DNA of 13,240 nucleotides from an uncultured archaeon (GTDB lineage: Archaea; Asgardarchaeota; Lokiarchaeia; Sigyniarchaeales; SOKP01): the NCBI GenBank assembly GCA_964525635.1, contig CAZGJX010000106.1:1-13240 (forward strand), read 5' to 3'. The notes under the pieces were generated by a model. That model was not told the origin of the DNA and did no database searches. It saw only the letters and a program-made list of their open reading frames with translations. This document shows positions 1,730-12,538 of this stretch, one piece after another. The translations under genes were made by a program, and so were the position numbers. Positions within the stretch are counted from its first letter, which is position 1. Every line of letters begins with the position of its first letter.

Positions 1730-2251
1730 ATGTCAAATGAAAAATTAAAAATAATATTATTTCGTAGTGCTGGTATTGAAATAGACCATTTTATTCAAAG
1801 ATTTACAAAAAAAAGATTTAATATGAGTTATAAATTAGAATTAGGAGTTGATATATTAAATAAAGAAGTAGAATATGAATCTGGAAAAAAGGTACAGCTT
1901 TCAATATGGGATATTGGAGATCATCTAAGGTATAAATTTGTACGAAGTAAATTTTATCGAGGAGCTGTTGGATGCATATCTATTTTTGATCTAAACAAAC
2001 CTCAGAGTTTTGAATTCATCAGAAAAAGGATTTTAGAGATATATGATTATATCAATAACAAGAGGTATTTTATCATTATAGGAATTAATATAGATATACC
2101 AGAAAAATCAGATATAAGTATTGAGAATCCAGATGTTCAGGAATTTATAGAAAAATATTGTAGTATCTATTATAAAGCCACTAAAAATAATAATAATATT
2201 GAAGATTTATTTGTTGAGTTAACTCGGAGAATAATGTATTCTAGAATTTAA
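1730..2251 (+). CDS. Rab/Ras-like small GTPase-fold protein with degenerate G motifs (probable pseudo-GTPase)
   Basis: Rab-type segments GVD, LSIWDIG, FYRGAVG..IFDL...SF and NIEDLF.EL.R.I are present. G1 reads RSAGIEID, G2 lacks Thr (KLELGVD), G3 is WDIGDH and G4 is GINID. Confidence 0.85.
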   Translation: MSNEKLKIILFRSAGIEIDHFIQRFTKKRFNMSYKLELGVDILNKEVEYESGKKVQLSIWDIGDHLRYKFVRSKFYRGAVGCISIFDLNKPQSFEFIRKRILEIYDYINNKRYFIIIGINIDIPEKSDISIENPDVQEFIEKYCSIYYKATKNNNNIEDLFVELTRRIMYSRI

Positions 2252-2342
2252 TGGAAGACGTGGCACTTTTATAGGATGTTCAAATTATCCCGATTGTAAA
2301 TATACATTTAATCCAGAAAGAATTAAAAAATTAGAATTTTAA
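2250..2342 (+). pseudogene. C-terminal half of a topoisomerase-type C4 zinc ribbon (zf-C4_Topoisom-like) gene remnant
   Basis: Manual translation: NGRRGTFIGCSNYPDCKYTFNPERIKKLEF*. Matches the G..G.F.GCS.YP.C.YT motif. No start codon and no N-terminal CPxCG. Confidence 0.75.
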
Positions 2343-2573
2343 ATTATAGGTAAAGAATAGAATCATAATAAGATAGATCTTTAATTAATTAATATAATTA
2401 GATTAGAAATTCTTTACTTAAATCTTATATTCTTAATAGATAAATAAGCTAATTGATTTGCTTGGAGTTTTCTGTAATAATTTTATGAATTATGATAACT
2501 AAAAATTTCTATTCTGCTATACATTATTAGAAATGTAAAATTTTGTATAAAATCATTGGATTGATAATTTAAA

Positions 2574-3140
2574 ATGGAGTCTATTATTTTTTTAGAGGAA
2601 TGTGGTATTTGTAGAGAATGCTGTGAAAGAATTCCCATCTGTGTGTGTGATTATCGCGTGATTGAGGCAATTATTTCAGATATTCTCCCTATTGAAATAA
2701 TTAATCAACTAAGAATTTATCAAATCAAGGAGGAATTGCTAAATTACGTGGCAAAAATATGGTGGTTTTTTCCAAATCACAATCTTCTAAAACTCATGAC
2801 GATAGAAGAAGAAGGGTTCTATTATATTTTAACTATACCACGATTAAGAGGGGGATGTCCATTTCTTTCCAAAGATAAGGAAAGAGGATGTCAATTTCCT
2901 AAAATTAAACCATATAATTGTGCAATTTATCCTTATTATATAGAACATGGAGAATTTAAGATTAGTTTGACATGTAAATACGCAAAAACAAAAAATATAA
3001 TTGAAATAAAATCATCTATAAGACAAATTGCTGACAATTTTACTCGTGAATGTTTAAAAAACCAAAAGAATTATTTTAAAAATCTGAAAAAAATTCAAGA
3101 AATATATACTATTCCCCAAATTAAATATCATGCATTTTAA
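2574..3140 (+). CDS. YkgJ-family (CxxCxxCC) zinc/iron-chelating cysteine-cluster protein
   Basis: CGICRECC near the N-terminus, then CPFL, GC and KPYNCAIYPY, which is the characteristic motif order. Confidence 0.85.
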   Translation: MESIIFLEECGICRECCERIPICVCDYRVIEAIISDILPIEIINQLRIYQIKEELLNYVAKIWWFFPNHNLLKLMTIEEEGFYYILTIPRLRGGCPFLSKDKERGCQFPKIKPYNCAIYPYYIEHGEFKISLTCKYAKTKNIIEIKSSIRQIADNFTRECLKNQKNYFKNLKKIQEIYTIPQIKYHAF

Positions 3141-3177
3141 ACTCCAGACTTATTCTAGGTTATCAATTTTATTAAAT

Positions 3178-3198
3178 ATGTTAAATATTATTTAACAT
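3178..3198. repeat. perfect 10-1-10 inverted repeat ATGTTAAATA-T-TATTTAACAT
   Basis: Read directly. Lies 37 bp downstream of the YkgJ-family stop codon. Function unknown. Confidence 0.6.
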
Positions 3199-3703
3199 TC
3201 TTATTAAAAATTGTTCACATGAAGGTTGTATTTGAATACCTTATTCATGAATGGTAAAACCAGTACCATCTATCGAGTAGGTGTTCAAACCATCCCCGAC
3301 TACTTAAAGTCTCATGAAGGTCACCCATTCAAATCATAGATGGGATTTCATGCTTAGATTCTCGAAATGAGAATATTATTCCACAAATGAGGGAAATTCT
3401 CGGAAAAAATAATTCTAATACCAATGCAATAATATATAAATTTAAAGTTTTTTAATGGACCTCCTTTTCAGATAAATTTCAATACATTAAATAATAAAAT
3501 TTAAAGTATGTTTTAAATTATTAAAGAGAGTACTCATTTATCAATAAACTGATGAAAAATAGAATATTAAATACATATTTTAATAAAAAATCTTAATAAA
3601 CCTTAACATTTTTAATATTTTTTATGATGATATTTTTTTTTTTAATTATATTATATTCAATCGATACTTTCAAATTAAATCTTAAAATTCCAATGACAAA
3701 GAA

Positions 3704-5305: not shown

Positions 5306-8300
5306 ATGAAAAGAAAGAAACTTATCGTTTTAATCATGATTATTCTTATTTTTTTTCCCTCGTTTGCTAATATTTCATCTTTTTTTGAAGAATCAAACAA
5401 AATAAAAAATAAAGTTGATGATAATTATAACATCCACCATAGTGATTCTGAATTTAATATCTTAACACCTGAAAATACAACTTATATGAATCCTATGTGG
5501 GGATATTATCCCGCCACTTTTGGATTTGAAAGAGTTATAGATAGAGATTTTGATAGTGAATGGGATGATAATAGTGGTACTGGTTGTAGCGCTCAAGTTG
5601 TTAACGCGATAGCAGGGCATAATAAAGTCCTAGAATTAAATGATACAGATTCCATATATGGATGTGATGTATCGAATACTTTTACAACTCCTCAAACTAG
5701 TGGAACCATTGAATTTTGGTTTCTTGGAATTAATACACTCTCTCAAATAAACATTCAGATTAATACTGGTACAACAACTGCAATTATGTTGGCTATAGGG
5801 GGAGAGTTTCTTCAATACAATGATGGTAATTGGAATAATATCCATCATGTTTTAAGCAATACATGGTATCATATTAGAATCGACTTTGAGTGTGGTAATG
5901 GATTATATCAAGGATTATCCCCTGATACATTTTTTGTTTATGTAAATGGAATAAATTATGGTCCATATTCTTTTTATACTGATGTCTCCGATGTTAACAT
6001 ATTTAATTTATTTACTCGTACCGTCATAGCAAATTACAAATATTACTTTGATGATATTGGATATTCATGGGATCCAAATTATAATATTGGTGATAATCGA
6101 AATGAGGGGCTTTTACTAAGCTTTGAAACTTCAATTATTATGGAATGGATTGGATATTCATTAGATGGTCAAATAAATAGGACTATATTGGGAGATAAAA
6201 CCATTCCCTTTCCAAGAAAAGGATTCCACTCTTTAAAATTGTTTGGAAATGACTCCTTAGGAAATATCTACCAATCAGATCTTAGGTATTTTAGAATTTC
6301 TCCCATAAATATCTTAACACCCGAAAATAAAACTTATATCAAACCAATGCAAGGATATTATTTAGCAACTTATGGATTTGAAAGCGTTGAGGATGGAAGT
6401 CTTCATAATGAATGGATTGATAATAGTGGTTCTGGATGTAGTGTTCAAGTTATTGACTCAATAGAAGGACGTAAGAAAGTCCTAGAGTTAAATGATAGTG
6501 ATTCTACTTATGGATGTGATGTATCGAATACATTTACAACTCCTCAAACTAGTGGAACCATAGAATTTTGGTTTTTAGGAATTGATGTCAATTATCAAAT
6601 AAACATTCAATTAAATTCTGGTGCAACAAATGCAATAATACTCGCTACAGGAGCAGGACACCTTCAATATAATGATGGTAATTGGAATAATATCCAAGAT
6701 ATTTTTAGTAATACCTGGTATCATATTAGAATCGATTTTGAGTGTGGAAATGGATTATATCAAGGATTATCCCCAGACACATTCTTTATTTATGTAAATG
6801 GAACTAAATCTGTAGCATATTCATTTGCCAATGATGTCTCTGAAGTTGATTTAATTAATTTAATTACACGTACCACCATAGCAGATTACACATATTATTT
6901 TGATGATTTTGGATATCTGTGGGATCCAAATTATAATATTGGAGATAACCAAAATGAAGGACTCTTAATCAGCTTTGAAAATTCAATTCCTATGGATTGG
7001 ATTGGTTATTCATTAGATGGTCAAAATAATAAGACTATTTTAGGAGATAAAACTATTCCCTATCCAGAAGAAGGTTCTCATACTTTAAAATTATTTGGAA
7101 ATGACAGCTTGGGAAATATCTATCAATCAGATCTTAGGTATTTTAAAATTTCTCCAATAAATATCTTAACTCCTGAAAATAAATATTATGAAGATCCTAT
7201 GGAAGGATATTATCCAGCTACTTTTGGATTTGAAAATGTTATGGATGGAAACCTACATAATGAGTGGATTGATAACAGTGGAACAGGATGTAATGTTCAA
7301 GTTATTAATTCCATAGAAGGACATAATAAAGTCCTAGAATTAAATGATTCTGATTCCATCAATGGATGTGATATATCAAATACGTTTACATCTCCTCAAA
7401 CTAGCGGAACCATTGAATTTTGGATACTAGGAGATGATGTATATAATCAAATTGATATTAATATTGATTCTGGAGCAGTAAATGCAATTAGGATTGGTAT
7501 AAATATGAGAAATATTCTTTATTATGAAAATTTTTGGAAAAATATCCGATCTATTTCAAATAATACTTGGTATAATATAAGGATTGATTTTGAATGCGGT
7601 GGTGGATTATATCAAGGATTATATGATGATAAATTTTGTATATATATAGATGGAATAAAATATGGTTCTTTTGATTTTAATAATCAAGTTTCTAATGTCG
7701 ATAAATTTTATGTTAATACTAGTAGTAATGTAGCAAATTACAACTATTATTTTGATGCAATTGGATATTCTTGGGATTCAAATTATTATATTGGTAATAA
7801 TCAAAAAAAAGGTCTTTTAATTAGCTATGAAAGTTCAGTTATTATAGATTGGATTGAATATTGTTTAGATGGGAGGATTTTTAGGACTATTGAAGGAAAT
7901 ATATCAATTTCTTTTCCAAATGCGGGTAATCATTCAATACAATTATTTGGAAATGATTCATTAGATAATTCTTATCAGTCTGATATTGTTTATTTCACTA
8001 TAATTGTTATAGACTTATTAGAACCAAAGAACAACACTTATGCATATACCATGAGGGGGCATTATTTTGCAACCTTTGAATTTGAAAAAAAACCTAATGA
8101 ATATTTTTTTAATAATTGGATAGATAATAGTGGATCTGCATGTATTACCCAAACTATTGATTCATTAGAAGGACATAATAAAGTTTTAGAATTGATTGAT
8201 AGTAGTACTTCGGCTGCCTGTGATATATCCACTACTTTTTCTACGCCTCAAACATCCGGAACACTTGAATACTGGATTTTTGGATACAATCTCAATTATC

Positions 8301-10372
8301 AAATTAGTTTAGATTTAGATTCTGGTACTGATACTGGAATAAGATTAGCTATTGGAGCAAGCATCTTTCAATTTCATAATGGATCTTGGAACAATATTGA
8401 GGAAGCATCAAATGCCATTTGGTATCATATAAGAGTTGATTTTGAATGTGGGGATGGATTATATCAAGGATTAGCTCCTAATACATTCTTTATCTATATA
8501 AATGGGGTAAAGTTTGGAGCGTATACCTTTAGAAGTAATGTTGGTAATATTGATAAGTTTCATATTTATACGCGTACTGATATTTCTAGCTATAGATATT
8601 ATTTTGATGCGATTAGTTATTCGTGGGATCCAGACTATAATACAGGGGATAATCAAAAGGAAGGATTTTTAGTTAGTTTTAAGATTTCTGAATATTTTGA
8701 ATGGGTTGGATATTCTATAGATAATTTAATAAATAAGACTATTTTAGGATGTACAATTATTCCTATGCCAAATCTTGGGAAACATTCAATCCAAATTTTC
8801 GCAAATGATTCAAAAGGTATTAAATATCAGTCAGAAAAGAGATTTTTTACTATAGAAAACATTTTAACCTTGATAAGTCCAAAAAATATAACATATGAGG
8901 AAGAAATAGAAGGATATTATCCTGCTACATTTGGATTCGAAAGTGTTATAGATGGTGATTTTCATGAAAAATGGATTGATTTTAGTGGATCTGAATGTAG
9001 TGCTCAAGTTTTTAATTCAATAACAGGACATAAAAAAGTACTAGAATTAAATGATACATCTGAAGCTAGTCAATGTCATGTGAGAAATATCTTTTCTACT
9101 CTACAGACCTCTGGAACAATTGAATTTTGGTTTTTAGGAATTGATGTTAATCATCAATTAAATTTTAATATTAATTCAGGACCATCAACTGCGATTATGA
9201 TTGCTACAGGGGCAGGACGCCTTCAATTCAATAATGATTCTTGGAACGATATTCAAAATATTTCAAGTAATACATGGTATCATATAAGAGTGGATTTTGA
9301 ATGTGGAGATGGATTATATCAGGGATTAGCTCCGTATAAATTCTATATCTATGTAAATGGAGTAAAATATGGTCCATATTCTTTTTATATTGATGTTTCT
9401 AATGTGGAGTACTTTGATTTAATTACTCGTGATATCATAAAGGATTATAAATATTATATTGATGCTATTGGATATTCATGGGATTCTAATTACAATATTG
9501 GTGATAATCAAAATGAGGGCCTCTTAATCAGTTTTGTAAATATTACTATGTTAGAATGGTATGCATATTCTTTAGATGGACAAGTAAATAGGACTATATT
9601 GGGCAATAAAACTATTCCATTTCCAAATGACGGGTATCATACAATACAAGTATTTGGTAGGGATTTGGATGGATTTTATTATCAAACAGATTTGATTGGT
9701 TTTAACGTAGATCTTTATCCAAATTTGAATTCACCTGATGATATTAATTATGTAGAAGGTGAAACAGGAAGCCAAATTTCTTGGATTCCCACAGACTTTA
9801 ATCCTCATTATTATTTAATAATTCAAGATGATACAATAATAGAAAATGGAACTTGGATTTCTGGAGAACCCATAAACGTTAATGTTGAAGGATTATCTGT
9901 TGGAATACATACTTATAAAATTATTCTTAATGATACAAAGGGACGATTAGTAAATGATAGTGTTAATGTTATTGTTAAAGCAAATCTAATACCTTTTATT
10001 AATTCTCCCTTAGATATTGAGTATATTGAGGGAGAAACTGGGAATATAATAAACTGGACAGTAATAGATGACAATCCTTTAAATTATATTGTATATGAAA
10101 ATGGATCTGAAATATTAAGTGGAATATGGATTTCTGGAGATCATATAATTGTTAATGTTGATGGATTATCTCTAGGAGATTATAATTATACAATAGTAGT
10201 CTTTGATAATAGTGGTGAATCTGTTTTCGATGAAGTAATTATCAAAATTTTACCGAGATCTCATCCCTCAAATAATATTCCTGGATTTGAATTATATATA
10301 TTGCTTATAAGTATGATTACATTGATTTCTATAATAATATATTTTATTCAAAGAGAAAGGATTCTAAAATAA
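5306..10372 (+). CDS. large cell-surface (probable glyco)protein: signal peptide, five ~284-aa repeats (jelly-roll/LamG-like + Ig-like), two ~91-aa Ig-like domains, IPGF-TM Loki-CTERM-like anchor
   Basis: MKRKK + hydrophobic N-terminus. SGTIEFW...WYHIRIDF...YVNG...YFD motifs recur five times. Many N-x-S/T sequons. C-terminus is IPGF + TM helix + QRERILK. Confidence 0.9.
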   Translation: MKRKKLIVLIMIILIFFPSFANISSFFEESNKIKNKVDDNYNIHHSDSEFNILTPENTTYMNPMWGYYPATFGFERVIDRDFDSEWDDNSGTGCSAQVVNAIAGHNKVLELNDTDSIYGCDVSNTFTTPQTSGTIEFWFLGINTLSQINIQINTGTTTAIMLAIGGEFLQYNDGNWNNIHHVLSNTWYHIRIDFECGNGLYQGLSPDTFFVYVNGINYGPYSFYTDVSDVNIFNLFTRTVIANYKYYFDDIGYSWDPNYNIGDNRNEGLLLSFETSIIMEWIGYSLDGQINRTILGDKTIPFPRKGFHSLKLFGNDSLGNIYQSDLRYFRISPINILTPENKTYIKPMQGYYLATYGFESVEDGSLHNEWIDNSGSGCSVQVIDSIEGRKKVLELNDSDSTYGCDVSNTFTTPQTSGTIEFWFLGIDVNYQINIQLNSGATNAIILATGAGHLQYNDGNWNNIQDIFSNTWYHIRIDFECGNGLYQGLSPDTFFIYVNGTKSVAYSFANDVSEVDLINLITRTTIADYTYYFDDFGYLWDPNYNIGDNQNEGLLISFENSIPMDWIGYSLDGQNNKTILGDKTIPYPEEGSHTLKLFGNDSLGNIYQSDLRYFKISPINILTPENKYYEDPMEGYYPATFGFENVMDGNLHNEWIDNSGTGCNVQVINSIEGHNKVLELNDSDSINGCDISNTFTSPQTSGTIEFWILGDDVYNQIDINIDSGAVNAIRIGINMRNILYYENFWKNIRSISNNTWYNIRIDFECGGGLYQGLYDDKFCIYIDGIKYGSFDFNNQVSNVDKFYVNTSSNVANYNYYFDAIGYSWDSNYYIGNNQKKGLLISYESSVIIDWIEYCLDGRIFRTIEGNISISFPNAGNHSIQLFGNDSLDNSYQSDIVYFTIIVIDLLEPKNNTYAYTMRGHYFATFEFEKKPNEYFFNNWIDNSGSACITQTIDSLEGHNKVLELIDSSTSAACDISTTFSTPQTSGTLEYWIFGYNLNYQISLDLDSGTDTGIRLAIGASIFQFHNGSWNNIEEASNAIWYHIRVDFECGDGLYQGLAPNTFFIYINGVKFGAYTFRSNVGNIDKFHIYTRTDISSYRYYFDAISYSWDPDYNTGDNQKEGFLVSFKISEYFEWVGYSIDNLINKTILGCTIIPMPNLGKHSIQIFANDSKGIKYQSEKRFFTIENILTLISPKNITYEEEIEGYYPATFGFESVIDGDFHEKWIDFSGSECSAQVFNSITGHKKVLELNDTSEASQCHVRNIFSTLQTSGTIEFWFLGIDVNHQLNFNINSGPSTAIMIATGAGRLQFNNDSWNDIQNISSNTWYHIRVDFECGDGLYQGLAPYKFYIYVNGVKYGPYSFYIDVSNVEYFDLITRDIIKDYKYYIDAIGYSWDSNYNIGDNQNEGLLISFVNITMLEWYAYSLDGQVNRTILGNKTIPFPNDGYHTIQVFGRDLDGFYYQTDLIGFNVDLYPNLNSPDDINYVEGETGSQISWIPTDFNPHYYLIIQDDTIIENGTWISGEPINVNVEGLSVGIHTYKIILNDTKGRLVNDSVNVIVKANLIPFINSPLDIEYIEGETGNIINWTVIDDNPLNYIVYENGSEILSGIWISGDHIIVNVDGLSLGDYNYTIVVFDNSGESVFDEVIIKILPRSHPSNNIPGFELYILLISMITLISIIIYFIQRERILK
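5453..9715 (+). repeat. five intragenic tandem repeats of 852-855 bp
   Basis: Equivalent unit starts at 5453, 6305, 7157, 8009 and 8864 (spacing 852, 852, 852, 855). Confidence 0.92.
9719..10250 (+). repeat. two tandem 273-bp Ig-like domain repeats
   Basis: P..NSP.DI.Y.EGETG..I.W...D.NP..Y...G.WISG..I.VNV.GLS.G starting at 9719 and 9992. Confidence 0.85.
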
Positions 10373-10388: not shown

Positions 10389-10422
10389 AATTATCTTAAT
10401 AGATACACCTGAAAATTGTTAT

Positions 10423-10749
10423 AGGAATAAATTTATAAAAAGTACATTTTATCGAGGAGCTTTTGGATGTATATTTATTTTTGATCTAAAAAAACCTCAG
10501 AGTTTTGAAATCATTAAAAAAAGGATTTTAGAGATATATGATTATGTCAATAATAAGAGGTATTTTATCATTATAGGAATCAATGCAGATTTATCAGAAA
10601 AATCAGATATAAGAATTGATAATACAGATATTCAGGAATTTATAGAAAAAATTAGTAGTATCTATTATAAAGCCACTATAAATAATATTAACAATATTGA
10701 AGATGTATTTGTTGATTTAACTCGAAAAATAATGTATTCTCGAAGTTGA
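10423..10749 (+). pseudogene. 5'-truncated second copy of the small GTPase gene at 1730..2251
   Basis: Aligns to 1928..2251 with about 35 substitutions plus one extra codon (about 89% identity, hand count). Reads RNKFIKSTFYRGAFGCIFIFDL...TRKIMYSRS*. The frame is open from 10381 but has no ATG/GTG/TTG start near its 5' end. Absent from the ORF track. Confidence 0.88.
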
Positions 10750-10844: not shown

Positions 10845-10865
10845 GAAATAACTGTTTTGCAAAAC
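10845..10865. repeat. repeat A copy 1: GAAATAACTGTTTTGCAAAAC
   Basis: Identical 21-mer at 12225..12245. Contains the palindrome GTTTTGCAAAAC. Confidence 0.85.
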
Positions 10866-11022
10866 ACGTTATTAGGGGCTATAAGCTCTAATTTGCTAAA
10901 GATTGAAAAGATTAAAATAATTAACAGAAAGAATTATCAATATTGCTTTATCTCTAAATTATAGGTAAAAGATATAAAGTCAATTGACTATATTTCTTAA
11001 GATTTATATTCAATATTTTTAA

Positions 11023-11055
11023 ATAAAAAAGTTGAGTTAGAAACCAAACATTTAT
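11023..11055 (-). repeat. repeat B copy 1 (33 bp), terminator-like on the minus strand
   Basis: ATAAAAAAGTTGAGTTAGAAACCAAACATTTAT, 32/33 identical to 12131..12163. Minus strand gives an imperfect hairpin + T6, 14 bp after the flavodoxin stop. Confidence 0.8.
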
Positions 11056-11069
11056 ATAAAAAAATATTA

Positions 11070-11531
11070 TTAATCCTCTAAATAGACTTTAATATTATTG
11101 ATAAAATCTTGTATTTTTTGTTCTTGTCCCTCCTCAGCAGGCCCTTTCATACTCTTCATTTTTACTTCTAAAACTTCTGAATAAACATTTTCGATATTCT
11201 TTGCATTTCTTATTGTTTTCACCATCCCCCTTTTAAATAATTTCTTGGGTTTTAATCTATGAGTATAACATATTATAGTTTTAGGAATTGGTCCCTTTCT
11301 ATTAGTATCTATTTCTTCAACAAACTTTTTCATTTCTCTATCTACTCCAAATTGCATTATTCTAGTAGTTAAAATGAGCCCATAAAGGTTATCTGTATCA
11401 TTAGTAAGATTAAAATTACCTATTCGTTTAACTTTAACATCAAACTTCTTGGTGAGGCCTTTAGCTATTTCTTCTGCTAAAATTCTTGAATTCCCATAAA
11501 GGGAATTATGAATAATATATACATTCTTCAT
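11070..11531 (-). CDS. flavodoxin-fold protein (paralogue 1)
   Basis: IIHNSLYGNSRILAEEIAKGL (S.xGN(T/S)..A..I phosphate-loop motif), 153 aa, alpha/beta pattern, KGP.EEG near the C-terminus. Confidence 0.8.
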   Translation of the reverse strand: MKNVYIIHNSLYGNSRILAEEIAKGLTKKFDVKVKRIGNFNLTNDTDNLYGLILTTRIMQFGVDREMKKFVEEIDTNRKGPIPKTIICYTHRLKPKKLFKRGMVKTIRNAKNIENVYSEVLEVKMKSMKGPAEEGQEQKIQDFINNIKVYLED

Positions 11532-11554: not shown

Positions 11555-12016
11555 TTAACTTTTTAAAAATATCTTTAGGTTATTAATATATTCATTAATT
11601 TTTAGTTCTTGTCCTTCCATAATGGGACCTCTATTTCCATCAACTCTTACTTCTAGATACTCAGGAGATATATTTTTTATATTATTTAATTTTTCTAACG
11701 TTTTATCCATTCCTTTCTTGAATCTTTCTCTCCATTTCATTTCATGCATGTAGAATACTGCCGTTTTAGGTATAGATTTTTTTCTATAAGAATCAATTTT
11801 TTTTATAAATTTCCTTATTTTAAAATTTGGTCTTAATGAAATAATCCGAGTAGCGATAATTAGTCCATAAAGACTATTTATATCACGCTCAAAGTCAATA
11901 TCATTTATATGGTCAATTTTCGTTTCAAAATCATTTTTAAGACCCTCAGAAATCGTTTGTGCTACACATTTTGAATTCCCAAATCGAGAATTATGAATAA
12001 TTAATATTTTTTCCAT
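11555..12016 (-). CDS. flavodoxin-fold protein (paralogue 2)
   Basis: IIHNSRFGNSKCVAQTISEGL. Co-linear with paralogue 1 (LYGLI..TRI, IPKT, GP..EGQE.KI). ATG 12016 gives the same 153-aa length. Confidence 0.8.
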   Translation of the reverse strand: MEKILIIHNSRFGNSKCVAQTISEGLKNDFETKIDHINDIDFERDINSLYGLIIATRIISLRPNFKIRKFIKKIDSYRKKSIPKTAVFYMHEMKWRERFKKGMDKTLEKLNNIKNISPEYLEVRVDGNRGPIMEGQELKINEYINNLKIFLKS

Positions 12017-12130
12017 TTTTTTATACCTTTCATAAATCAACGTTAATTGGATATATTTATTGATTAAAATTTTATTTTTTTATATTATTTCTTTAGTCCA
12101 ATTTTTGATAAATAATATCTTGCTTTACAT

Positions 12131-12163
12131 ATAAAAAAGTTGGGTTAGAAACCAAACATTTAT
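12131..12163 (-). repeat. repeat B copy 2
   Basis: ATAAAAAAGTTGGGTTAGAAACCAAACATTTAT, direct repeat of 11023..11055. Confidence 0.8.
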
Positions 12164-12224
12164 TTAATAATAATTATGGACTTTTTTCATGGAAAAAGAG
12201 ATTTTTTTAATGGAAAATGGGTGC

Positions 12225-12245
12225 GAAATAACTGTTTTGCAAAAC
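12225..12245. repeat. repeat A copy 2
   Basis: Identical to 10845..10865. Both copies run into a CACGTTA motif. Confidence 0.85.
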
Positions 12246-12538
12246 TCACGTTAATAAGTGATCTCAGTCATATCATTAAGTTTTGGAGGGATGAATATAA
12301 ATTAAAAAATTTTTTGATAAGATACCTAAGTTTTTAGGAAATTTATAAAAGAGAGAAAATTAGTTGATTCTTAATTTCAAGATATAATAGAAAAATTATA
12401 TAATAAAGAAATTTTAAATTCTATGAAATTTGATTTTCGAAATAGACAAATTCAACGTCAGATTTCAATGAAAATTACATTGAAAAATATGAACCCATAA
12501 CCAAATTTTGGATTATAGATATCTAAAATTCAAAATGT

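Follow-up and report, generated by a model that had tools for sequence, protein, structure and literature searches.

A Rab-fold protein without canonical G motifs in a Lokiarchaeial genome: candidate class-i-type pseudoGTPase of a genus-restricted, partly decaying clade

What is left for a Rab-shaped protein to be once every motif of its GTP site has changed? Asgard genomes hold dozens of Rab-like GTPases, and one gene among them raises this question directly. The stretch of DNA analyzed here, 13,240 nucleotides long and called the window throughout, is an entire contig (C106) of a Lokiarchaeial genome (Promethearchaeota, kingdom Promethearchaeati), so that the Asgard origin read from the letters in the original prediction is correct. 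The genome comprises 4.45 Mb in 245 contigs and yields 85 Ras-family matches, a typical Asgard expansion, and DNA of the window is present in salt-marsh metagenomes. Scans of the window for tRNAs and Rfam families gave no match. The gene in question, copy A, runs from ATG to TAA with no stop or frameshift across its 173 codons. Its features are given below, with motif calls taken from alignments to Rab30 and Rab11 chains and to 28 canonical archaeal orthologues; L062 is a metagenome contig, G002 a second genome of the same genus and P0003-P0005 are metagenomic proteins, all of which are described further on.

1730..2251, + strand: copy A, a Rab-fold open reading frame of 173 aa without canonical G motifs, candidate class-i pseudoGTPase (open reading frame list, Pfam, Rab30/Rab11 alignments, AlphaFold2)
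1763..1786, + strand: degenerate G1/P-loop, R12-S-A-G-I-E17-I18-D19, where canonical orthologues read GAAAVGKT (alignments)
1838..1840, + strand: G2, with Glu37 instead of the switch-I Thr, which is lost in copy A and L062 and kept in P0003-P0005 and the G002 copy (alignment)
1850..1909, + strand: interswitch beta2-beta3 hairpin, residues 41-60, the best-conserved part of the clade (identity between subclades)
1910..1924, + strand: degenerate G3, D61-I-G-D64-H65 for DIGGQ (alignment)
2084..2095, + strand: degenerate G4, I119-N120-I-D122 for NKxD, the changes of N to I/F and K to N being common to the whole clade
2177..2188, + strand: degenerate G5, A150-T-K-N153 against canonical T-S-A-K (alignments)

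Does copy A belong to the Ras superfamily at all? Residues 20-169 match Pfam Ras (PF00071) with E=4.9e-23 and 81.9 bits (cut-off 21.6), and Pfam Roc is matched with E = 4.6e-12. Among solved structures, 588 chains match copy A, the best being Rab30, Rab11, Sec4 and Ypt31 with E down to 8e-22; the Rab30 and Rab11 chains score at E=1e-21, far beyond chance. Copy A retains the scaffold segments LGVD, SIWD, FYRGA and IFDL, and in residue alignments LGVDI, SIWDI, FYRGA and SIFDL resemble RabF1, F2, F4 and F5. The C-terminus (...RRIMYSRI) is a tail without Cys and thus lacks the prenylation motif of eukaryotic Rabs. At the other end, the clade alignment shows a conserved start codon and N-terminus (MSN.KLKI). 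The original prediction of an intact Rab-like frame in which all nucleotide-binding motifs are altered is upheld by the Ras match and by the degeneracy of G1 to G5 in the alignments.

The damage to the motifs is extensive. In G1, both Gly of GxxxxGK[ST], the Lys and the Thr are replaced; E17 and I18 are common to all full-length clade members, and position 19 is D, E or Q. Of the other marks of a functional switching GTPase (G2 Thr, G3 DxxGQ, G4 [NT]KxD and G5 SAK), copy A has none. The strings first read for G1 to G4 stand as given. For G5, first read as ATK, homology places T151-K152-N153 opposite SAK, with the gap fixed by two close copies, and the HMMER alignment gives A-T-K; the motif is degenerate either way. 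An acidic substitution had also been claimed at the P-loop Lys, and this was mistaken: the Lys has become Ile, and the acidic residues stand at the preceding Gly (now Glu) and at the Mg-binding Thr (now Asp). Twelve of the 14 key G-motif residues are changed in copy A, as compared with 28 of the 78 other positions at which canonical sequences are invariant or nearly so (Fisher p=0.0008), and 64% of the non-motif canonical-invariant residues are retained. The loss is therefore concentrated on the pocket, as had been proposed, and most of the rest is kept. From its residues, copy A is predicted to be unable to bind GTP/Mg in the canonical way.

Could the pocket have been remodelled rather than emptied? 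Copy A would then bind a nucleotide or another phosphate ligand as a class-ii/iii-type atypical GTPase. It retains D61 of G3 and D122 of G4, and the residues that replaced the canonical ones, E17, I18 and N120, are in turn conserved throughout the clade, so the region is not free to drift. However, the P-loop Lys, the Ser/Thr, both Gly of GxxxxGK, the N and K of NKxD and SAK are all gone, two acidic residues stand where phosphates would lie, and a single change of such a kind, Ypt1 N121I, already abolishes GDP and GTP binding (PMC2120555). We regard a remodelled pocket as very improbable.

Would such a sequence still take up the shape of a Rab? An AlphaFold2 model of copy A, built from a 22-row alignment, is a Rab-type G domain (mean pLDDT 77.3, pTM 0.78) with strands and helices in Rab order and a poorly formed alpha-1. 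Its weak part comprises the P-loop, alpha-1 and switch I (pLDDT 63-76), and it has a disordered loop following G4. Foldseek relates the model to Rab35, Rab8, Rab1, Rab11, Ypt32 and Ypt7 with TM 0.72-0.80 (probability 1.00 for Rab35, Rab8, Rab1, Rab11 and Ypt7). Rabs in complex with a GEF, mostly without nucleotide, rank first at rmsd 3.1-4.1 Å, with DENND1B, GRAB, DrrA, SH3BP5, TRAPPII, Mon1-Ccz1 and Rabin8 as the GEF partners; most nucleotide-bound Rabs rank lower, at 4.7-5.5 Å. We treat this likeness to nucleotide-free Rabs as a lead only, because the region that deviates is the one modelled with low confidence.

An open frame from a metagenome bin invites one more doubt: it could be a product of misassembly, such as a chimera of paralogous copies that collapsed in the bin. 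Two or three copies of about 80-90% identity are present in the population (A, B and L062), the Logan contigs are fragmented across the gene, and the bin is itself in 245 contigs. Yet independent Logan contigs from run X1, possibly the source sample, match the window without a difference over 1433-1997 and 1995-2145; the N-terminal part, for which the genome holds no paralogue, aligns colinearly with P0003-P0005; and the reading frame is continuous and homologous throughout. We give an artefact next to no credence.

How far does this kind of sequence extend? The degenerate clade consists of copy A, its paralogue copy B, the L062 allele, the G002 orthologue and the metagenomic proteins P0003-P0005. 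The last three are 174 aa long, 57-59% identical to copy A and 83-87% identical to each other, and appear intact in their database translations. Orthologues sharing the degenerate G1 and G4, for which the original prediction had proposed a search, do exist: P0003-P0005 and the G002 copy have IEI[DEQ] and I/F-N-x-D. Among 5.8 billion clusters only five match the clade; the word-indexed search gave four relatives, and P0004 as query added no further one. In an exhaustive search of 1.8 billion representatives, nothing came closer than P0002 (143 aa, 81% identical to copy A), and the next in order were ordinary or multidomain Rab-like proteins. Clade members occur in two of the 135 genomes of the family, the window genome and G002; L062 was the sole return of a metagenome scan and a G002 contig that of a scan of genome contigs. 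The clade is confined to one genus, and no neighbour in the window recurs beside the copies of its relatives.

Copy A is the only intact clade copy in the window genome. The second copy lies further along the window.

10420..10749, + strand: copy B, 5'-truncated paralogue, residues 66-173 (E=1e-48)

Copy B has 78% protein identity to copy A, has no start codon and is without G1-G3; its homology starts about 50 nt past the stop of the gene at 5306-10372 and ends at the stop codon. That gene (+ strand) encodes a predicted surface protein of 1688 aa with an N-terminal signal-like segment, a C-terminal hydrophobic helix and five internal repeats of roughly 270 aa, for which galectin, Laminin_G and Ig-like matches are sub-threshold only. 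The same part of the window holds a dispersed repeat at about 12182-12250, with a partial copy at 10845-10874 and the core palindrome TGTTTTGCAAAACA. The 12182-12250 repeat recurs at 40-odd further places in the genome (45 rows listed), often several per small contig, and summed contig depth over 11935-12376 is up about 5-8-fold in all four runs. Tandem flavodoxin-like paralogues, both under Pfam thresholds, lie at 11070-11531 and 11555-12040 on the - strand, and a shared sequence of roughly 47 nt (GTTAGAAACCAAACATTTAT core) stands 3' of the first (11023-11070) and 5' of the second (about 12131-12177).

The other two DNA copies are broken by nonsense codons. The G002 orthologue sits among unrelated genes and contains two in-frame TAA codons, both where canonical orthologues have Gln. 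A BHB mini-intron was considered for these stops and rejected, the alignment being colinear without an insert and both stops falling on the canonical Gln positions. L062 (Ga0315555_1056994) is the contig of P0002 and is 100% identical in DNA to window positions 2417-3691, a flank of 1275 nt. Within the GTPase gene, by comparison, it is only 82-95% identical to the window, and homology is lost upstream of about 1797; the allele is 5'-truncated and carries TAA at codon 28 and TGA at codon 60. A contig from run X2 has the same downstream variants. Because an identical flank adjoins a diverged gene body, we infer that the gene body of L062 was replaced by a paralogous copy, through gene conversion or recombination, rather than drifting as an allele. 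P0002 reads W where the DNA of L062 has TGA. The database protein thus appears to come from reading through a dead allele with TGA taken as W, and a database entry of this kind calls for caution. A dead allele at the locus of copy A also means that at least one strain can do without the gene.

Immediately after the GTPase gene, half of a topoisomerase-type C4 zinc ribbon (GRRGTFIGCSNYPDCKYTFNPERIKKLEF) is encoded at window 2253-2342, in the +1 frame relative to the GTPase frame and directly abutting its stop; it recurs with a few changes at L062 541-627. As a lost C-terminal domain of the clade it was rejected, since P0003-P0005 end where copy A ends and have no tail.

From what did the clade arise? 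Nearly every genome of the family and order carries one highly conserved copy of a canonical Rab-like GTPase (MSSFKLKVLLTGAAAVGKT...), which reads MSSFKLKVLLTGAAAVGKTSLVQRF...DIGGQQRF...GNKxDL...ETSAKTG...TELTRRIIDSR and is about 41% identical to copy A (examples are G001:C108, G003:C343 and G002:C52). In a maximum-likelihood tree, the seven degenerate sequences form one clade (100/100) inside the canonical f1 group of the family. The stem of this clade measures 0.65 changes per site and is followed by a further 0.40 to A, B and L062, against canonical branches mostly below 0.1. Copy A and the canonical protein are alike in length, in the N-terminus MS..KLK, the C-terminus TRRI..SR, the segments SIWDI and FY.GA.G and the absence of a C-terminal Cys. 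They differ in that the canonical protein has all five G motifs and evolves at an omega of 0.003-0.004, whereas copy A has no motifs and a branch roughly ten times longer. The clade would thus have originated by duplication of this canonical GTPase.

The order of the losses can be read from the two subclades. E17, I18, I/F119 and N120 are derived states shared by both, and the sequences point to a clade ancestor that had already lost G1 and G4. P0003-P0005 and the G002 copy retain the G and Q of G3 (DIxGQ) and L062 reads DIGEH, so the loss of G3 looks late and specific to the subclade of A and L062; the sub-lineage of the window genome would have lost G2, G3 and G5 after G1 and G4. Relatives of the canonical parent in other metagenomic lineages have degenerated independently: in P0020 only G1 is kept of G1, G3, G4 and G5, in P0023 all four of these are gone, and the P-loop of P0046 looks frameshifted. 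Motif loss in this group of GTPases appears to be recurrent.

Is the parent still present beside its degenerate descendant? In G001-G003 it lies downstream of a RACo-like Fer2/ASKHA gene (G001:C108:15926-16444). No close copy was found in the assembly of the window genome (G000), where the best match, on contig C30, is 56% identical and has orthologues of its own in G001 and G002; a search for remains of the parent in the ends of contigs C155 and C137 gave no significant match. Since the syntenic slot coincides with the end of C155, loss of the parent is indistinguishable from an assembly gap.

Was the lineage maintained after the GTP site had gone, or has it simply been decaying? We fitted a self-written GY94-F3x4 branch model to a codon alignment of nine DNAs, namely five canonical genes and the copies A, B, L062 and G002, in which stops were masked, and cross-checked it only by IQ-TREE fits of a single omega. 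Canonical branches evolve at omega 0.003. The branches after the loss (the stem of the trio A, B and L062 together with the G002 branch) give a pooled omega of 0.11, for which both omega=1 (p=2e-13) and omega=0.5 (p=1e-6) are rejected. The IQ-TREE GY+F3X4 fits agree, with 0.004 for the canonical genes, 0.21 for the four degenerate DNAs and 0.38 for A, B and L062, and the Nei-Gojobori ratio between A and the G002 copy is 0.34 (pN 0.25, pS 0.52). On deep branches dS is about 2, near saturation, and single-branch estimates are unstable, for which reason only the pooled tests are relied on; the saturation leaves the pooled result intact, for non-synonymous change lagged far behind. The dN/dS comparison proposed with the original prediction therefore spoke against neutrality on the post-loss branches. 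The codon alignments indicate that the lineage was held by purifying selection after loss of the GTP site, as expected of a class-i-type pseudoGTPase lineage and not of plain decay.

Closer to the present the picture is less clear, and here a different reading gains ground: copy A may be a young pseudogene that is not yet broken, from a clade that was once functional and in which selection has lapsed in this genome group. On its own branch A has an omega of 0.53, indistinguishable from 1 (p=0.35) and from the branches of B and L062 (p=0.67), so that the original comparison did not come out for copy A itself as it did for the lineage. Nei-Gojobori ratios are 0.79 for A-B, 0.64 for A-L062 and 0.51 for B-L062. 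All three of the nearest copies are broken, G2 and G3 are lost in A and not in the intact P0003-P0005, and the locus is variable between strains, with rearrangement breakpoints near the gene. The clade is in a birth-and-death phase and eroding, with B truncated and both L062 and the G002 copy carrying nonsense codons. The original prediction had set its reading against random decay; this is right for the lineage after the loss and does not extend to the three closest copies, which are dead.

Set against this reading, the pooled terminal branches of A, B and L062 have an omega of 0.43, below 1 (p=0.018). The frame of A is free of frameshifts, its start codon and MSN.KLKI N-terminus are conserved, and it has kept nearly two-thirds of the invariant residues outside the motifs, as noted above. 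The terminal dS of A is 0.117 over 519 nt, and in this AT-rich frame 8.9% of mutations make stops, so that a terminal branch neutral over its whole length predicts about 5 stops in A; none is seen in 173 codons (P about 0.005 by our arithmetic), and L062 has 2. Neutral evolution can thus have covered no more than about the final third to half of the branch. We take the open frame as a mild sign of selection, which probably still acts on copy A or did so until very recently. We consider the young pseudogene a real possibility, to be held tentatively.

The reading that we favor, with moderate confidence, is that copy A is a Rab-fold, class-i-type pseudoGTPase of a genus-restricted clade, kept by selection after the loss and predicted to serve as a nucleotide-independent binding module. 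What would such a module bind with? The interswitch hairpin is 84% identical between the two subclades, most other regions being only 30-57% identical, and residues 34-62 form an invariant block in clade alignment A1. A permanently empty, Rab-shaped module might thus bind a partner through the interswitch/switch-II face, which is conserved and would be inherited from the parent. Such a protein may be a scaffold or decoy, as first suggested. Of the four nearest DNA copies three are dead, the allele at the same locus is dead in one strain, and the neighborhood is not conserved, all of which argues against a role of present importance.

One such role may be to hold a GEF-like partner of the canonical relatives. 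We know of no GEF for any Asgard Rab-like GTPase. The idea comes from G4, where the change of Asn to Ile is the same kind of change as Ypt1 N121I, which blocks its exchange factor. By this analogy copy A would be a natural mimic of a permanently nucleotide-free Rab that traps or regulates, within its own cell, the exchange factor or another switch-face partner of its canonical relatives, which we think unlikely. Were this so, an archaeon closely related to eukaryotes would encode its own "dominant-negative" GTPase, and a G domain that stays empty could act as bait for GEF-like partners, among them those of Asgard Rab-like GTPases.

How does copy A compare with systems already known? Ypt1 N121I fails to bind GDP or GTP and exerts its inhibition by tying up the exchange factor (PMC2120555), and Rab1a N124I is a nucleotide-free, dominant-inhibitory Rab mutant (PMC2120032). 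Both share with copy A the change of the first residue of NKxD from Asn to Ile (I119 in copy A), but they are single laboratory changes in intact GTPases, whereas in copy A all five motifs are gone; the likeness is an analogy and not evidence. A further comparison is Thor-Rab, with structures 7EZB, 7EZD and 7EZE (Tran et al. 2024, PMC10933270), which binds GDP and GTP. As described there, Asgard Rab-like GTPases share with copy A the superfamily, a stand-alone length of roughly 175 aa and the absence of a prenylation Cys; unlike Thor-Rab, copy A is without the residues for binding. A keyword search of that paper gave no mention of motif-less members, and no publication in the library searched joins "pseudoGTPase" and "Asgard". 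PseudoGTPases as a kind and Asgard Rab-like GTPases are each established already.

PseudoGTPases are known "from bacteria to human" (PMC12490416), and the class-i members include CENP-M (PMC4080450), the N-domain of AAGAB (PMC12490416) and pG1 and pG2 of p190RhoGAP (PMC5593906). Like these eukaryotic proteins, the lineage of copy A has a GTPase fold whose G motifs were lost and which was conserved afterwards, and in both the result is thought to be a fixed protein-binding module. The eukaryotic examples are old, widely conserved, biochemically proven to be nucleotide-free and have known partners. Copy A, in contrast, is archaeal, stands alone, belongs to one genus, is partly decaying, is predicted to be nucleotide-free and is related to them only at the level of the superfamily. 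With one genus, no conserved neighbors and several dead copies it makes a weak model; what it offers is a single genus in which a pseudoGTPase can be followed from gain through maintenance to decay. If its Rab-shaped product was kept after the GTP site was lost, as the post-loss branches suggest, then the transition from switch to adaptor known from eukaryotes would happen in archaea too.
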